From a virus (lineage: Duplodnaviria > Heunggongvirae > Uroviricota > Caudoviricetes): a stretch of DNA of 12,617 nt. Positions 3,887 through 11,379 of the stretch are shown one piece after another. Made by a program: the position numbers and the translations under genes. The stretch lies in the IMG/VR virus record IMGVR_UViG_646862323_000004. One strand, given 5' to 3'. The first letter of the stretch is position 1. Every line of letters starts with the position of its first letter. A model generated the notes under the pieces. It ran no database searches, was not told where the DNA came from, and saw nothing but the letters and a program-made list of their open reading frames with translations.

Positions 3887-3957
3887 TGTTTTTTAACCTC
3901 AACTCAGATTAAAATTCGTTTTGTTCAGTGAATGATCTTGCCGGATACACACTGTTC

Positions 3958-5978: not shown

Positions 5979-6167
5979 GGTGTCGCCTATGGCACCTCCG
6001 CAGGCAGTGCTGGCTACTGGTTTTTACAGTTGCTCGATAGAGTCACGCCCTCACAGTGGGCAGCAATAGGTGTGCTGGGTAGTCTGGTGTTTGGCCTGTT
6101 GACGTATCTGACAAATCTTTATTTCAAGATTAAAGAAGATAAGCGTAAGGCTGCACGGGGAGAGTAA
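5979..6167 (+). pseudogene. 5'-truncated class II pinholin (phage 21 S21 / EssD-like); first 9 or so codons and the start codon missing
   Basis: The in-frame translation [62 protein letters not shown]-stop matches S21 residues 10-71 as I recall them. There is no ATG, GTG or TTG start in frame after the upstream stop at 5946. Confidence 0.75.
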
Positions 6168-6171
6168 TTCA

Positions 6172-6516
6172 ATGACTCAAAACTATGAACTGATTGTGAA
6201 AGGGATCCGCAATTTTGAGAATAAAGTTACGGTAACTTTAGCGTTACGGGACAAAAAACGCTTTGACGGTGAAATTTTAGACCTGGACATCTCGCTGGAC
6301 CGTGTTGAAGGTGCCGCGCTGGAGTTTTATGAGGCAGCAGCCAGAAGGAGCATCAGACAGGTCTTCCTGGATGTTGCTGCAGGGTTATGTGAAGGGGATG
6401 AGCAGTCACCGGAAAAGCGCCCCATAATTTTAGAGGCGCAGGGTGTGTGGATAACCTACAAAGGAAAACTGCCGGGAAGAATTACTGGTTCACTGAAGAC
6501 TCCGCCGAAATGGTAA
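6172..6516 (+). CDS. DUF1327-family protein (Qin YdfR-like), 114 aa, in the lysis cassette
   Basis: ATG at 6172 lies 5 nt after the pinholin stop. The translation (MTQNYELIVKGIRNFENKVTVTLALRDKKRFDGE...) resembles the YdfR family found between holin and endolysin genes in Qin-type prophages. Confidence 0.78.
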   Translation: MTQNYELIVKGIRNFENKVTVTLALRDKKRFDGEILDLDISLDRVEGAALEFYEAAARRSIRQVFLDVAAGLCEGDEQSPEKRPIILEAQGVWITYKGKLPGRITGSLKTPPKW

Positions 6517-6754
6517 TTTCACCAGCATATTTTTCTTCCAGTAATACCGCCAGCCACTTGAAAGAATTTTGTTGTTGCTGGGACCATTTGGGGTTGAGTG
6601 ATTCAAGCTGGAGCGATGCCAGTGTTGGTTGCATTTGTTCCTTGGGAATTGAGAATGCCAGATATGAAAATGCGACAGTAAGGGCATTTACATCATCCCG
6701 AAGCTTGGAAATGCAGTCGAGCAACTCCTGTAGAGAAATGGTGCTATTGTCCAT
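6482..6754 (-). CDS. Hypothetical 90-aa protein of predicted helical character, convergent with and overlapping the DUF1327 gene
   Basis: ATG at 6754-6752 is preceded by GAGAGGA at about 7-nt spacing. Codon usage is coding-like, whereas the competing plus-strand ORF 6447-6779 translates to Ser/Cys-rich junk. I recognise no family. Confidence 0.45.
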   Translation of the reverse strand: MDNSTISLQELLDCISKLRDDVNALTVAFSYLAFSIPKEQMQPTLASLQLESLNPKWSQQQQNSFKWLAVLLEEKYAGEITISAESSVNQ

Positions 6755-6859
6755 AAACAATCCTCTCTATTGTATTTAACTATTCCTTGCCTGATTCAAC
6801 AGGCCGGGACAGATAAACATATCCAGGGTTCAGAAACCGATAAATCCTGATAAATATCC

Positions 6860-7393
6860 ATGAACGCAAAAATCAGATACGGCCTGTCGGCTGCCGTTCT
6901 GGCACTGATTGCCGTCGGTGCGCCTGCGCCTGATATTCTCGACCAGTTTCTGGATGAAAAAGAAGGTAACCACACAACGGCATACCGCGATGGTTCCGGT
7001 ATATGGACCATCTGTCGTGGTGCCACAATGGTGGATGGTAAGCCCGTCATACCGGGAATGAGGCTGTCGAAGGAAAAATGCGACCAGGTTAACGCTATTG
7101 AACGTGATAAGGCGCTGGCATGGGTGGAGCGCAATATTAAAGTACCACTGACCGAACCACAGAAAGCGGGTATAGCGTCATTTTGTCCCTATAACATTGG
7201 CCCCGGTAAGTGTTTCCCGTCGACGTTTTATAAGCGGCTGAATGCCGGTGATCGTAAGGGTGCATGCGAGGCGATTCGCTGGTGGATAAAAGATGGTGGG
7301 CGCGATTGCCGCATACGTTCAAATAACTGCTATGGACAGGTTATTCGTCGTGACCAGGAAAGCGCATTAGCCTGTTGGGGGATAGATCAGTGA
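6860..7393 (+). CDS. SAR endolysin (phage lysozyme, T4-lysozyme/GH24 type; R21/RrrD-like), 177 aa
   Basis: N-terminal Gly/Ala-rich signal-anchor-release segment ([17 protein letters not shown]) followed by the E...D...T catalytic motif ([18 protein letters not shown]). No Shine-Dalgarno is visible upstream of the ATG. Confidence 0.9.
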
Positions 7394-7854
7394 GCAGAGT
7401 CGCCGCGATTATTTATGCTCTGGTTATCTGCATCATCGTCTGCCTGTCATGGGCTGTTAATCATTACCGTGATAACGCCACCGCCTACAAAGAGCAGCGC
7501 GACAAAAATGCCAGAGAACTGAAGCTGGCGAACGCGGCAATTACTGACATGCAGATGCGTCAGCGTGATGTTGCTGCGCTCGATGCAAAATACACGAAGG
7601 AGTTAGCTGATGCGAAAGCTGAAAATGATGCTCTGCGTGATGATGTTGCCGCTGGTCGTCGTCGGTTGCACATCAAAGCAGTCTGTCAGTCAGTGCGTGA
7701 AGCCACCACCGCCTCCGGCGTGGATAATGCAGCCTCCCCCCGACTGGCAGACACCGCTGAACGGGATTATTTCACCCTCCGGGAACGACTGGTAATGATG
7801 CAGGCCCAACTTGAAGGTGCTCAGCAATACATAACCGAACAGTGTTTAAAGTAA
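7390..7854 (+). CDS. rzpR: Rz-type i-spanin, 154 aa from a GTG start overlapping the endolysin stop (GTGA)
   Basis: N-terminal transmembrane helix ([19 protein letters not shown]) followed by a charged coiled-coil region. The track ORF starts 5 codons upstream at a TTG. Confidence 0.85.
7610..7795 (+). CDS. rzoR: Rz1-type o-spanin lipoprotein, 61 aa, nested in the +1 frame of Rz
   Basis: AAGGAG ribosome-binding site before the ATG. Signal peptide with lipobox (LVVVGC) and a proline-rich mature region ([15 protein letters not shown]), entirely embedded within the Rz gene. Confidence 0.88.
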
Positions 7855-7991
7855 AATCTTAACTACAATATGATTCATTTTGATGATTGTTTCATAAGGA
7901 ACAGTGAAGTAAGATCTAAGAGGAGTTAAATTTTATACAGTATAATCATAATATTGCAGCAAGGTGGTTATAATTGAAAGAATATTTAGAT

Positions 7992-9450
7992 ATGAATACA
8001 TCTCATGTAAGAGTTGTTACTCATATGTGTGGGTTCCTGGTTTGGCTCTATAGTCTTTCAATGTTGCCACCAATGGTTGTAGCATTGTTTTATAAAGAAA
8101 AAAGCCTATTCGTTTTCTTTATAACTTTCGTTATATTTTTTTGTCATTGGTGGCGGAGCGTGGTATACAACTAAGAAATCTGGCATTCAATTACGTACCC
8201 GTGATGGGTTTATTATAATTGTAATGTTTTGGATTTTGTTTTCTGTTATTAGTGCATTCCCTTTATGGATTGACTCAGAACTTAATTTAACGTTCATTGA
8301 TGCTCTGTTTGAAGGGGTTTCTGGAATAACAACAACAGGAGCAACTGTAATTGATGATGTTAGTTCATTACCTCGGGCATATTTGTACTATCGGTCACAG
8401 TTAAATTTTATAGGTGGTTTAGGAGTTATTGTTCTGGCGGTTGCTGTATTGCCATTATTGGGTATTGGTGGTGCAAAGCTTTATCAGTCAGAAATGCCGG
8501 GGCCATTTAAGGATGACAAACTCACTCCCCGCCTGGCCGATACGTCACGGACACTGTGGATAACTTATTCTTTATTAGGTATTGCTTGTATTGTCTGTTA
8601 TAGACTTGCAGGAATGCCTTTGTTTGATGCTATTTGTCACGGGATTTCCACAGTTTCGCTTGGTGGTTTCTCAACTCATAGCGAGAGTATCGGATATTTT
8701 AATAACTATTTGGTTGAGCTGGTGGCTGGTTCTTTTTCCCTGCTATCGGCTTTCAACTTCACTCTTTGGTATATTGTTATTAGCAGGAAAACGATAAAAC
8801 CTTTAATCAGAGATATTGAACTTCGTTTCTTTCTGTTAATAGCCTTAGGGGTGATCATTGTTACCTCTTTCCAGGTCTGGCATATAGGTATGTATGACTT
8901 GCATGGAAGTTTTATTCATTCGTTTTTTCTTGCCAGCTCCATGCTCACTGATAATGGTTTAGCTACGCAGGATTATGCAAGCTGGCCCACGCACACGATA
9001 GTGTTTTTGCTGTCGTCAAGTTTCTTTGGGGGATGTATAGGTTCAACTTGTGGTGGAATTAAGTCACTTCGATTTCTTATACTTTTCAAACAAAGCAAAC
9101 ACGAGATAAATCAGCTTTCTCATCCCAGAGCGTTGTTGAGTGTAAATGTAGGAGGGAAGATAGTTACAGATCGTGTAATGAGGTCTGTATGGAGTTTCTT
9201 TTTTCTTTATACTCTCTTCACGGTGTTTTTTATACTGGTGTTAAATGGTATGGGATATGATTTTCTTACATCATTTGCAACAGTGGCTGCATGTATTAAT
9301 AATATGGGATTAGGTTTTGGGGCTACTGCATCGTCATTCGGAGTGCTTAATGACATTGCAAAATATTTAATGTGCATAGCTATGATTCTTGGTCGCCTTG
9401 AAATTTATCCTGTTATTATATTGTTTTCAGGTTTTTTTTGGCGCTCCTAA
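7992..9450 (+). pseudogene. trkG: TrkG potassium-uptake protein gene disrupted by a +1 frameshift (extra C near 8145)
   Basis: Frame 3 reads MNTSHVRVV...FVIFFC then HWWRSVVYN-stop (8172-8174). Frame 1 from 8146 reads IGGGAWYTTKKSGIQLRTRDGFIIIVMFW and continues to 9450. The span is 1459 nt, one more than 486 codons. The region is strongly AT-rich. Confidence 0.85.
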
Positions 9451-9532
9451 TATATGGCTGATTTATAATTGTGAGTTTAATATTATATTGACTCACTCAT
9501 TGATCCAATACCTAACTTTACCAGCAACACCT

Positions 9533-9587: not shown

Positions 9588-9983
9588 ATGAGCGAGAAAT
9601 TAAAGATAGTCTATCGCCCATTACAAGAATTGTCACCGTATGCGCACAACGCCAGGACGCACAGTACTGAGCAGGTGGCACAACTGGTAGAAAGTATTAA
9701 GCAATTCGGCTGGACTAATCCGGTGCTGATTGACGAAAAGGGCGAAATTATTGCGGGTCACGGTCGTGTTATGGCGGCTGAAATGCTCAAAATGGATTCT
9801 GTTCCGGTCATTGTTCTGGCCGGAGATACAACCTACAGGGAATGGTTTTTGCGTCAGCCTTACACCAGACAAAAACAGATTGTGGGGGAAACCCGGGCAA
9901 AGCTGATTCGGGATGGCGGTATGTCGCCAGATGAATTTTACACCGATAAAGGCGAATACCCGGATCGCAACAGTAAGCGGTAA
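9588..9983 (+). CDS. ynaK: YnaK-like ParB/Srx-type N-terminal domain ORF, 131 aa, with an aberrant C-terminal extension
   Basis: The first 80 or so residues (…IIAGHGRVMAAEMLKMDSVPVIVLAG) look like a ParB N-terminal nuclease-like fold. The remainder (DTTYREWFLRQPYTRQ...) has no ParB character and overlaps the next ORF. Confidence 0.68.
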   Translation: MSEKLKIVYRPLQELSPYAHNARTHSTEQVAQLVESIKQFGWTNPVLIDEKGEIIAGHGRVMAAEMLKMDSVPVIVLAGDTTYREWFLRQPYTRQKQIVGETRAKLIRDGGMSPDEFYTDKGEYPDRNSKR

Positions 9984-10668
9984 TACATCCCTTATAACAG
10001 CCAAAGCTGAACAACAGGGCGAGTGGACCTACTATGAGGCCACTTATACAGCTAATACGGACATTGATACCGTTAACTGTGCTTTTTATATGACAAATAA
10101 AATAAGTAATGAGCCATTCTATGATGACTCAACATTAACCATGACGACGCCGCAAATTGAACTGGGCAATACGGCATCGTCATTTATTGTAACTACAATG
10201 CCAACAACACGCGCAAGTGATGTGGTTACTATCCCCTCGGCGAATAACCTGTCAACACGGCCTTTTACAGTATTGTGCGAAGTAAGGAGGAACTGGAGTA
10301 CACCGCCCAATGTTGCGCCAAGGATATTTGATGTTGGAGGGCACAGTATTGATGATAATTATTTATCGCTGGGGTTTGTTTCAACAGGAAAGATAAGCGC
10401 CAACGTAGGAATGGTTCAGCCACAAATTTCCTCAGATGGAGAAAGGTTCATTGTGGGTGTGAGAGCTAAATCTGATTTATCAGTAAATGCAATATGCAAT
10501 GGTAATTATACAACAAACCTTAATGGTAAAATATTTGGAGTTACAGCAACATCGTACCGGTTTGGTGGGCAGACCGCAGCAGGAACGCGTCATTTGTTTG
10601 GACACATCAGAAATTTCAGAGTCTGGTTTAAAGAATTAAATGACAGGCAAATCAAGGAGGCAGTATGA
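9913..10668 (+). CDS. Tail-fibre-like protein fragment, 251 aa, with a C-terminal concanavalin-A/LamG-like jelly-roll domain; probably 5'-truncated
   Basis: Thr/Ser/Asn-rich beta-type composition. The C-terminus (...RFGGQTAAGTRHLFGHIRNFRVWFKELNDRQIKEAV) resembles the end of LamG-type domains. No Shine-Dalgarno precedes any in-frame Met; an in-frame stop lies at 9904-9906. Confidence 0.5.
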   Translation: MAVCRQMNFTPIKANTRIATVSGNTSLITAKAEQQGEWTYYEATYTANTDIDTVNCAFYMTNKISNEPFYDDSTLTMTTPQIELGNTASSFIVTTMPTTRASDVVTIPSANNLSTRPFTVLCEVRRNWSTPPNVAPRIFDVGGHSIDDNYLSLGFVSTGKISANVGMVQPQISSDGERFIVGVRAKSDLSVNAICNGNYTTNLNGKIFGVTATSYRFGGQTAAGTRHLFGHIRNFRVWFKELNDRQIKEAV

Positions 10669-10943
10669 AAGATTTAACTTTGAAATTTCCTGGTAACAGA
10701 GAGTTTAAATCCTTCCTGTCATCTCTTGACTGGGAGGAAGATGAAGACCTCCAGAATAAACTGTTAGTCGATGAAATTGGTTTCACCTACACAGAAACAG
10801 GGGTAACTGAAGAGGGAGAACCTGTCTGTATCCGGAATAACGGTTATTTTGTCAACATTCGCATTCTTGATGACTTGTTTGATGTTTCTGTATTCTCTGA
10901 TTATGTCGTGGAGCTGGAAACACCGCTTCGGGAATGGAGCTGA
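10665..10943 (+). CDS. Hypothetical acidic protein, 92 aa
   Basis: Consensus AAGGAGG lies 5 nt upstream of the ATG, which overlaps the preceding stop (ATGA). Asp/Glu-rich with no hydrophobic segment. I recognise no family. Confidence 0.6.
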   Translation: MKDLTLKFPGNREFKSFLSSLDWEEDEDLQNKLLVDEIGFTYTETGVTEEGEPVCIRNNGYFVNIRILDDLFDVSVFSDYVVELETPLREWS

Positions 10944-10955
10944 AAGGAGGAAATA

Positions 10956-11249
10956 ATGGATATAAGCCCCTTACTTCATGCACTTTGTGCTGTGGCTGCG
11001 CAGATACTGGTTGGTCTTTTTACCGGAAACTGGGCTTACGGAGCGATAGCCGGTTGTACGTTCTTCATTGCGCGTGAACATACCCAGGCAGAATATCGCT
11101 GGATTGAAATGTTCGGGCATGGCAAGCGAATGAATATGCCGTGGTGGGGCGGTTTTGATCCGCGCGCGTGGGATGTGGCAAGCCTGATGGATTTTGCTGT
11201 GCCGGTGGTGGCGTGTCTGCTGGTCTGGCTGTTGGTTAATCGTGGGTGA
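10956..11249 (+). CDS. Hypothetical small integral membrane protein, 97 aa, about three hydrophobic segments
   Basis: Consensus AAGGAGG lies 4 nt upstream of the ATG. Hydrophobic stretches [32 protein letters not shown] and [19 protein letters not shown] recognise no family. Confidence 0.62.
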
Positions 11250-11259
11250 AAAAAGGTGG

Positions 11260-11379
11260 GCTGTATATGCAACGGAGGAAGAAACCTCGTTGCTGGAAGC
11301 ATGGAAAAAGTATCGGGTATTGCTGAACCGTGTTGATACGTCAACTGCACAGGATATTGAATGGCCAGCACTGCCGTAG
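11260..11379 (+). pseudogene. tfaR: 3' remnant of a tail fibre assembly gene (tfa); conserved C-terminal 35 or so codons only
   Basis: Translation ...[36 protein letters not shown]-stop matches the lambda Tfa C-terminus as I recall it. There is no in-frame ATG; the upstream sequence in this frame overlaps the membrane-protein gene. Confidence 0.7.

Follow-up and report, generated by a model that had tools for sequence, protein, structure and literature searches.

The tail-fibre region of the Rac prophage in Escherichia coli B

The stretch of DNA analysed here (the window; 12,617 bp, IMG/VR virus record IMGVR_UViG_646862323_000004) is the Rac prophage of E. coli B and matches BL21(DE3) (NC_012971.2) from intR to ydfK. 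Its tail-fibre region contains two adjacent, intact open reading frames (ORFs) encoding proteins of 92 and 97 amino acids (aa), which lie between a truncated side-tail-fibre gene and a stump of the fibre-assembly gene tfa (Table 1). A preliminary description had placed them correctly at this site and had regarded them as a two-gene cassette, possibly a toxin/immunity or anti-defence pair, with the 97-aa product as a candidate exclusion factor. Comparison with related loci leads us to a different view, namely that the 97-aa protein belongs to a widespread uncharacterised family and that the 92-aa protein, although unannotated, is a mundane companion of one class of tail fibre.

Translation signals are as strong for both ORFs as had been described. 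The Shine-Dalgarno sequence AAGGAGG occurs three times in the 12.6-kb window, two of these occurrences stand directly before the ATGs of the 92- and 97-aa genes, and the start of the 92-aa gene overlaps the stop of the upstream fibre ORF as ATGA. The sequence of the junction between the 92- and 97-aa genes is identical in phage 21. The 92-aa product is indeed acidic, with an isoelectric point of 4.08 and 21 D+E versus 8 K+R residues.

Neither protein could be assigned to a characterised family, which bears out the preliminary description. In the PHROGs database the 92-aa protein matches phrog_1361 over its full length (E 4e-39) and the 97-aa protein matches phrog_1443 end to end (E 2.4e-58), both of them families of unknown function, as are the further matches of the 97-aa protein to phrog_34165 and, weakly, phrog_9191. 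Pfam and NCBIfam gave no match above noise for either protein, PADLOC returned 0 families for both, and the two family profiles found nothing meaningful among PDB sequence profiles; across Pfam, PHROGs and PADLOC the 97-aa protein matches no annotated exclusion family. A weak, sub-threshold Pfam match of the 97-aa protein to the PhoR N-terminal domain (E 0.037) was rejected as compositional. Structure prediction, which had been proposed as a check, gave confident AlphaFold2 models for both proteins but no informative fold match: the 92-aa model (predicted local distance difference test score, pLDDT, 89.7) has a beta-alpha-alpha-beta-beta fold, and the structural matches of the 97-aa model (pLDDT 91.1) are uninformative generic helical bundles. 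The exact 97-aa sequence bears the UniRef name 'Ybl63'; literature searches by accession, PHROG identifier and this name returned nothing relevant on either protein, nor is either one named in the papers on BASEL, DT57C, P22 SieA and Tai or in the Hf4s preprint.

Table 1. Positions in the window of the two ORFs, their translation signals and the surrounding prophage features.
Feature	Position	Strand	Remarks
92-aa ORF	10665-10943	+	Intact; RefSeq 'hypothetical protein' WP_000654171.1 in BL21(DE3)
97-aa ORF	10956-11249	+	Intact; RefSeq 'hypothetical protein' WP_000355360.1 in BL21(DE3)
Shine-Dalgarno AAGGAGG of the 92-aa gene	10654-10660	+	Inside the fibre ORF, close to its end; 4 nt upstream of the ATG
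Shine-Dalgarno AAGGAGG of the 97-aa gene	10944-10950	+	Right after the 92-aa stop codon; 5 nt before the ATG
Truncated side-tail-fibre gene	9913-10668	+	LamG-like tip only; 251-aa ORF ending in the conserved RHLFGHIRNFRVWFKELNDRQ tail
tfa C-terminal stump	11269-11379	+	Pfam Caudo_TAP (PF02413), E 3.1e-16, positions 95-130 of 131
ynaK/head-morphogenesis chimeric ORF	9588-9983		Residues 1-79 = ParB-like YnaK N-terminus; residues 77-123 = phrog_241 positions 299-345
trkG	7992-9450		Broken into ORFs 7974-8174 and 8224-9450, in different frames
Lysis cassette	6030-7854		essD, ydfR-like, rrrQ lysozyme, Rz; between sieB/ydaF and trkG
Rz-like 'lysis protein' gene	7375-7854		
61-aa ORF	7610-7795		Inside the Rz-like gene, in another frame

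Two independent genes, probably joined by cassette recombination

The two genes are independent and were probably joined by cassette recombination in tail-fibre loci. Among 70 species-level loci with the 97-aa gene, 66 lack the 92-aa gene and the LamG-like fibre tip, and the 92-aa family profile finds no match in any of these 66; the four loci that have the 92-aa gene and the tip are all Escherichia-type, one of them being labelled as a Collinsella metagenome-assembled genome. The virulent phages examined, from four groups, have the 92-aa gene but no 97-aa gene in the fibre locus, and coupling to the fibre gene is seen in each of them. In PhiR49_1_star, E. coli L159 and IdasGreatGrand an entire second fibre gene separates the two genes. 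There is also a seam in base composition, with GC contents of 42.3% in the fibre tip, 40.9% in the 92-aa gene, 53.4% in the 97-aa gene and 49.5% in the tfa stump, the jump falling at the 12-bp junction. The two-gene cassette of the preliminary description is not supported by these data, nor do the two genes constantly co-occur in the loci surveyed.

The tfa stump, which RefSeq calls a pseudogene ('missing N-terminus'), is not the result of local decay. It stands at equal spacing behind the 97-aa gene in phage 21 (L002), PhiR49_1_star (L003) and two Escherichia ruysiae loci (L005 and L006), which identifies the 97-aa gene and the stump as one mobile piece, and the fibre tip and the 92-aa gene as another. 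The stump is thus a recombination scar within a conserved mobile module and moves along with the 97-aa gene.

That the 92- and 97-aa proteins function together, as an exclusion system, a toxin/immunity pair or an anti-defence pair, would fit with their adjacency at a distance of 12 bp, with the strong translation signals of both, and with their joint presence in phage 21 and in 74 of the 80 best-matching IMG/VR contigs, although these contigs are near-identical E. coli sequences (at least 95% identity) and not independent. The occurrence of each gene without the other and the GC seam argue against a toxin/immunity or anti-defence pair, and an obligate pair of this kind is not supported, as co-occurrence fails and PADLOC matched no known defence component. 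Nor is there a 92-like gene in the P22-like, P2-like, phiHAP-1 or cellular contexts of the 97-aa gene described below. A few loci nevertheless weigh against full independence. In a Comamonas kerstersii prophage (L012 5209-9620), a 95-aa gene of phrog_18574 directly precedes a 98-aa member of the 97-aa family within a tightly overlapping late operon (gpJ of 1782 aa, a tail assembly chaperone-like protein, proteins of 250, 388, 95, 98 and 148 aa, an M15 endolysin and Rz), and in three further loci (L021, L025 and L032) related proteins of 171-188 aa are encoded right before the 97-like gene. Outside Escherichia, the C. kerstersii prophage offers the clearest example of neighbouring 92-like and 97-like genes. 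With hhalign, phrog_18574 and the 92-aa family show only weak similarity (E 0.012, probability 3.6%). The two families might be functionally linked via phrog_18574, but we consider a functional pair highly improbable.

The 92-aa protein as a companion of LamG-tipped fibres

The 92-aa gene is linked to the gene for a LamG-tipped fibre. Its product was found in 143 phage records, and a search at megablast sensitivity placed the gene itself at 1203 sites in 1132 complete E. coli genomes. Each of the 12 loci examined has a LamG-tipped fibre gene whose stop either meets the start of the 92-aa gene without a gap or shares 4 bp or 1 bp with it, and the C-terminus of the fibre is homologous in each case to positions 9913-10665 of the window. 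Six of these loci are BL21, phage 21, Shigella L161, PhiR49, L159 and IdasGreatGrand, and six are from virulent phages (Tequintavirus IrisVonRoten, VSe12 and Stokescottia, Nonagvirus JenP1, Warwickvirus tonn and Dhillonvirus rolling). The fibre ORF of the window is only the C-terminal third of a side tail fibre: its residues 13-251 align to positions 543-793 of the 793 in phrog_1419 ('tail protein'), and intact homologues have about 660-800 aa. Its tip matches Pfam Laminin_G_3 with an E-value of 2.5e-5 and 24.9 bits, under the gathering cut-off of 27.6 bits.

Downstream of the 92-aa gene, a second fibre gene with a conserved N-terminus (MVTKT or MATST) usually begins after 10-13 bp (119 bp in VSe12). 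In the window and in phage 21, the 97-aa gene fills the slot in which this second fibre gene otherwise starts. The distal subunits of such fibres show conservation only at the far N-terminus, the presumed attachment point (BASEL paper, PMC8594841). Between J and sitD, phage 21 has no annotated fibre-assembly gene, and just a 20-residue tfa remnant is detectable in that stretch.

All 11 fibre C-termini aligned (L001, L002, L003, L155, L159, L161-L165 and L172) share a common end of about 30 residues, RHLFGHxRNxRxWxKELTDxQ, encoded at positions 10579-10665 of the window, with the variants RHLFGH(I/V)RN(F/L)R(I/V)W(H/F)K(E/A/T)LTD.Q among the window and its relatives. The roughly 120 residues before this tail are 31-79% identical, except in the closest pair (98%). 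From its pattern of conservation, this nearly invariant tail, encoded at the 3' end of the gene, resembles a conserved handle for recombination or docking. Identity of the tip (last 150 residues) is no predictor of identity of the 92-aa protein (Spearman 0.05, 55 pairs): between the window and phage 21 the 92-aa proteins are 91% identical and the tips 40%, between the window and Stokescottia 51% and 79%, and between PhiR49 and L159 97% and 44%, respectively. This lack of co-variation suggests that the 92-aa protein, if it acts on the fibre at all, acts on its conserved C-terminal tail.

We conclude that the 92-aa protein is neither a specificity-matched chaperone nor the partner of the 97-aa protein, and that its role is most likely in fibre assembly or, as an adaptor, in the docking of the distal subunit. 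Its gene is translationally coupled to that of the fibre, and the protein would act in the cytoplasm late in infection, probably via the invariant C-terminal tail of the fibre and not via its variable receptor-binding surface. Genomic context points to the mundane fibre-accessory role that the preliminary description had named as an outcome speaking against its own proposal, but no known chaperone family is matched. As the client fibre is truncated in BL21, the copy of the 92-aa gene in this strain is probably a functionless leftover.

Conservation and predicted topology of the 97-aa protein

The 97-aa family comprises 577 clusters at 90% identity, and an exhaustive profile search covering 1.84 billion representatives yielded 449 representatives at 50% identity. 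No domain fusions were found among these 449 relatives, all of which have about 60-146 aa. Helices are predicted at residues 4-23, 26-52 and 74-96 of the window protein, with hydropathy peaks on helices 1 and 3. The protein is therefore predicted to be multi-pass, as proposed, but the number of membrane-spanning helices is uncertain, as the hydrophobicity of helix 2 is moderate at best and two transmembrane domains (TMDs) are given by TMHMM in the record of phage 21.

In 116 divergent representatives, with a median identity of 40% to the window protein, H8, R40-E41, Q44-A45-E46, W72 and P83 are kept in at least 92%, R58 in 89% and D79 in 79%. H8 belongs to helix 1, the end of helix 2 holds R40-E41 and Q44-A45-E46-Y47-R48, and these are followed by R58, W72, D79 and P83; the conserved polar residues H8 and D79 would thereby lie within predicted membrane helices. 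The family alignment shows the loop between helices 2 and 3 to be nearly invariant across enterics, Aeromonas and Comamonas. Basic residues are concentrated in this loop (residues 40-73), which has a mean of 5.5 K+R compared with <0.3 in every other non-membrane segment, and by the positive-inside rule this places the loop in the cytoplasm and the termini N-in/C-out. The 97-aa protein is thus predicted to reside in the inner membrane with almost no periplasmic exposure. Both the 97-aa and the 92-aa families are under strong purifying selection.

Genomic contexts of the 97-aa gene

The 97-aa gene is present in 1909 of 5426 complete E. coli genomes (35%) at 3938 places (median 2, maximum 7), 57 of which are on plasmids. 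Carriers include E. coli B and C, Nissle 1917, LF82 and ST131 isolates, and every E. coli copy among the matches listed is annotated 'hypothetical protein'.

In phages and prophages, the genes preceding the 97-aa gene are unrelated to one another and belong to temperate sipho-, myo- and podoviruses of four proteobacterial classes. The gene stands behind stf in lambdoid phages, whether or not a distal fibre is present, between tailspike and integrase in the P22-like Gally, JEP4 and 611R6, after a pectate-lyase tailspike and before the lysis cassette in L160 (a tailspike-to-holin slot), and directly behind a fibre with a Peptidase_S74 domain in a Leclercia P2-like prophage. The phiHAP-1 homologue follows a tail-fibre assembly gene, just before the sheath gene FI, while in Comamonas the gene comes behind giant gpJ-type tail modules, in Desulfovibrio after an S74 tailspike and in Chelativorans after a LamG fibre. 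The preliminary proposal of a membrane protein in a slot typical of conversion and exclusion genes is matched by the tailspike-integrase position in Gally, JEP4 and 611R6, where in 611R6 the 97-aa gene shares a conversion locus with an adjacent OafA-type O-acetylase gene, and by the position after the fibre-assembly gene in phiHAP-1.

Between the Gally tailspike and the 97-aa gene lie a strong terminator with a 9-bp stem, an AT-rich spacer with a promoter-like site, and the good ribosome-binding site AAGGAG, an arrangement that has the classic architecture of a moron, with signals for autonomous expression. In 611R6 (L167 5983-6426), a 38-aa 'tail fiber protein' stump is located 43 bp before the 97-aa homologue, and the same 43-bp spacing is found between a Peptidase_S74 distal fibre and the 97-aa gene in the lambdoid locus L159 (4918-6288). 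This suggests that the gene was transferred between phage types along with a fragment of the gene upstream. Seven E. coli phage carriers were checked for lifestyle, and all are temperate: phage 21, Gally, JEP4, 611R6 and IdasGreatGrand carry an integrase, and PhiR49 and Tritos were obtained as prophages. In the six virulent coliphages examined that carry the LamG-tipped fibre and the 92-aa gene, the fibre locus lacks a 97-aa gene, and these phages are absent among the 97-aa matches listed in a phage-wide search.

Members of the family also occur at sites that are not of phage type. In Aeromonas rivipollensis (L157 8001-8309), a 97-aa homologue is encoded between pirin and RIO1 kinase genes with no phage genes in 16 kb, and two lipid A acyltransferase genes are found beyond RIO1 on the opposite strand. 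Loci L009, L011, L015 and L016, from three further Aeromonas species, have the same neighbour ORF sizes; Pfam context was obtained for L157, and the other four loci were matched to it by the size of the neighbouring ORFs. The pirin/RIO1 site hence appears to be a conserved, non-phage site, suggesting a cellular origin or a domesticated copy. Sphingomonad-type Alphaproteobacteria (L049, L058, L068, L070, L050, L039 and L037) have single copies just downstream of housekeeping genes, namely ligA (three loci), pnp, a nadB-like gene, and the genes for AMP nucleosidase and DAHP synthase. No conserved partner of the cellular copies was found, the downstream neighbours in sphingomonads differing by locus. 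In the jumbo Aeromonas phage PS1 (about 237 kb; L169 3429-3692), an 87-aa protein matches residues ~31-83, the core of the 97-aa protein, and its gene adjoins a helicase/terminase gene and an HNH endonuclease gene, not tail genes; similar matches were found in PS2, AVP1 and pAEv1810 (Aeromonas phages of about 235 kb). We conclude that the 97-aa family is a cellular family of small membrane proteins that has been taken up by phages and is not purely a viral invention.

Possible functions of the 97-aa protein

Our preferred explanation for the locus, to which as a whole we give a probability of roughly 0.45, is that of two independent genes, the 92-aa gene encoding a fibre accessory and the 97-aa gene an inner-membrane accessory, both stranded in a decayed Rac prophage. 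For the 97-aa protein, the moron slots, the absence from the virulent coliphages examined, the expression signals in Gally and the indifference to the type of receptor-binding protein encoded upstream lead to this reading with modest confidence, and the same indifference argues against a chaperone or receptor mask specific to one such protein. We posit that temperate phages repeatedly placed a copy of the gene behind their last receptor-binding gene, a moron slot, and that the protein may be made in lysogens and also late in infection, the timing being deduced from gene position. It would then act on a conserved inner-membrane process via its cytoplasm-facing loop and intramembrane polar residues, with the possible outcome of an altered envelope or surface-polysaccharide biogenesis, or of a block to genome entry by superinfecting phages. 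By analogy with other genes in such slots, an exclusion or lysogenic-conversion role is plausible and fits the position. The more specific proposal that phrog_1443 represents a widespread, prophage-expressed class of inner-membrane proteins, recruited from cells and acting in broad superinfection exclusion or envelope conversion, is put forward only tentatively.

Several observations weigh against this reading. Spacing to late tail genes is tight in the lambdoid, P2-like, phiHAP-1, JEP4 and Comamonas contexts of the 97-aa gene, ranging from an overlap of 4 bp to a gap of 43 bp, and a late function fits this coupling as well as a lysogenic one. Its predicted cytoplasmic loop and near lack of periplasmic exposure imply that it does not mask surface receptors directly. 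The near-invariance of the loop from E. coli to Alphaproteobacteria, together with the cellular and PS1 copies, is not typical of co-evolving exclusion proteins, and on alignment the conservation looks more like that of a catalytic or ligand-binding site than that of an arms-race interface. Sphingomonads are not known to make lipopolysaccharide (LPS), so that an LPS-specific role should not hold for the entire family. Finally, no sigma-70-like promoter was found on the + strand between positions 9490 and 11535 of the window, which means that both genes may be silent in BL21.

The coupling to late genes could reflect a role in morphogenesis or release, such as the timing or localisation of fibre or tailspike maturation at the membrane, modulation of lysis, or the sparing of progeny from debris. 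The 97-aa gene is on the same strand as the tail gene and close to it, overlapping it by 4 bp in JEP4, phiHAP-1, Chelativorans and Comamonas kerstersii and following it after 0 bp in Leclercia, where further genes come after it, and after 12 bp in the window. It is located directly upstream of lysis cassettes in L160 and L012, and in three contexts it comes after receptor-binding proteins that end in Peptidase_S74. A promoter for the gene alone was looked for in the lambdoid context and not found, and the fibre stump of 611R6 keeps the 43-bp spacing. We nonetheless regard a late factor as unlikely. The virulent coliphages examined with the LamG fibre and the 92-aa module do without the 97-aa gene, which is hence dispensable for building or releasing such virions. 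The 97-aa protein shows little variation across unrelated preceding receptor-binding proteins, in Gally a terminator and a promoter-like site intervene between tailspike and gene, and the cellular copies have no phage partner. Its 34-residue loop and the lack of a charged C-terminal tail and of a Pfam holin match also set the protein apart from class I holins.

Rather doubtful, too, is a general role in membrane physiology, in which the 97-aa protein would be a small enzyme, a transporter regulator or an ion- or metal-binding module, and the gene a host-fitness gene with no part in exclusion. Such a role would agree with the copies at non-phage sites in Aeromonas and beside sphingomonad housekeeping genes, with the helicase/terminase and HNH endonuclease neighbours of the jumbo-phage copy in PS1, with the strong retention of the polar signature H8...RE..QAEYR...R58...W72...D79...P83 at a median identity of 40%, and with the absence of a PADLOC match. 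It leaves unexplained the placement behind receptor-binding genes in three morphotypes and four proteobacterial classes; among 449 relatives there is no fusion to, or conserved neighbourhood with, an enzyme or transporter, and some 97 residues are few for an enzyme unless it is oligomeric.

Prophage setting of the two genes

The Rac copy in E. coli B is heavily decayed. Downstream of trkG, the gene order is the ynaK chimera, the fibre tip, the 92-aa gene, the 97-aa gene, the tfa stump and, on the opposite strand, pinR. The chimera marks a deletion scar, at which practically the whole set of head and tail genes has been lost, as far as the last 251 codons of the fibre. There is about an even chance that both ORFs are inert relics in BL21, intact only since the deletion that truncated the fibre is recent. 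The extent of this loss, which has left only 251 codons of the fibre and none of the head and tail genes from ynaK to the tip, and the lack of a promoter-like site upstream on the + strand would both fit inert relics, as would the identity with E. ruysiae L005 (100% for both proteins and 98% for the tip), which leaves little time for decay. Such relics would concern the BL21 copy alone, however, and not the two families, with their strong purifying selection; moreover, read-through from trkG or ynaK is possible, and an expressed 97-aa protein could act without a fibre.

Over its 12,617 bases the window differs from NC_012971.2 solely by one extra T at position 8144, in a T-run at 8138-8150, which breaks trkG and could be a true frameshift of the source strain or a homopolymer sequencing error. 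The Rac prophage of K-12 carries the racR-ydaS/T/U/V/W immunity and replication region at the site of the lysis cassette, so that the B-strain and K-12 versions differ by large module replacements. Inside the Rz-like gene of the cassette, a 61-aa ORF in another frame encodes a lipoprotein signal and lipobox; by these features it looks like an Rz1-type o-spanin, and it is missing from the RefSeq feature list of the locus.

Implications

If the 97-aa protein is an exclusion or conversion factor, it would be among the commonest prophage-borne modifiers of phage susceptibility in E. coli, with a bearing on the host range of phages in therapy and on the reading of phage screens in B-lineage hosts, while the consequence for BL21 itself is probably nil. 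A conserved target in the membrane could be approached through its invariant polar motif and its relatives in cells. The 92-aa protein is apparently an obligatory companion of a widely exchanged class of lateral fibres in T5-like, Drexlerviridae, Dhillonvirus, Queuovirinae and lambdoid phages, and fibre transplants in phage engineering would probably need the 92-aa gene to be moved as well.

Comparison with known systems

Tail-fibre assembly proteins include lambda Tfa, P2 G and Mu U (Caudo_TAP) as well as T4 gp38 and gp57A. The 92-aa protein resembles Tfa-type proteins in the position of its gene right 3' of the fibre gene, in their coupling and in being a small, acidic, soluble product, and in phage 21 the gene takes the position of tfa without an intact annotated tfa nearby. 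It differs in having no match to PF02413 or a related chaperone family.

Class I holins have three TMDs, short loops, a charged C-terminal tail and an endolysin neighbour. A holin was rejected as an identity for the 97-aa protein, which has a 34-residue loop, a C-terminus only 1-3 residues past helix 3, no Pfam holin match and cellular copies; the lysis cassette of the window is separate. Tail-assembly-interference (Tai) systems were likewise set aside, as these are found mainly upstream of the packaging module and are not described as membrane proteins.

The preliminary description had named T5 Llp and phi80 Cor as precedents for the 97-aa protein. Llp and the Cor proteins of phi80 and N15 are outer-membrane lipoproteins that mask FhuA. 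Llp/Cor-like factors are encoded beside receptor-binding loci (PMC11990801). The 97-aa gene is similar in adjoining a receptor-binding gene, but the precedents do not hold for the protein, which has no lipobox (HALC is not one, and C11 is variable in a 68-sequence alignment) and an acidic N-terminus with no basic n-region, and which is predicted to be an inner-membrane protein with a cytoplasmic loop. With this predicted topology, receptor inactivation at the outer membrane is unlikely.

O-antigen seroconversion genes are encoded downstream of tailspikes, for example gtrABC in P22, oac in Sf6, the genes for small membrane polymerase inhibitors in epsilon15 and D3, and a gene in phiV10. The 97-aa gene occupies the same slots (tailspike to integrase in Gally, JEP4 and 611R6, tailspike to holin in L160) and its product is likewise small and hydrophobic, but it has no Pfam match to GtrA, glycosyltransferases or acyltransferase-3, is tied to no particular O-antigen-specific tailspike and also occurs at non-phage sites. 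P2 carries a non-essential exclusion gene (a Z/fun-type moron) between its fibre-assembly and sheath genes, which the phiHAP-1 and Leclercia homologues resemble by position only.

SieA and HK97 gp15 are from temperate phages and are expressed from the prophage, and SieA has three predicted transmembrane helices (PMC10883804). The 97-aa protein is similar to SieA, Imm and gp15 in being a small predicted inner-membrane protein, and to SieA also in its three predicted helices. It shows no detectable sequence relationship to any of them, and its family is far more conserved and widespread than known Sie proteins; SieA, unlike the 97-aa protein, is 162-164 aa long and acts against P22-like phages alone, and its gene precedes that of the tailspike. 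Imm is a protein of T4, a virulent phage. For HK97 gp15 there is a homologue in the host, YebO, which provides a parallel to the cellular members of the 97-aa family.

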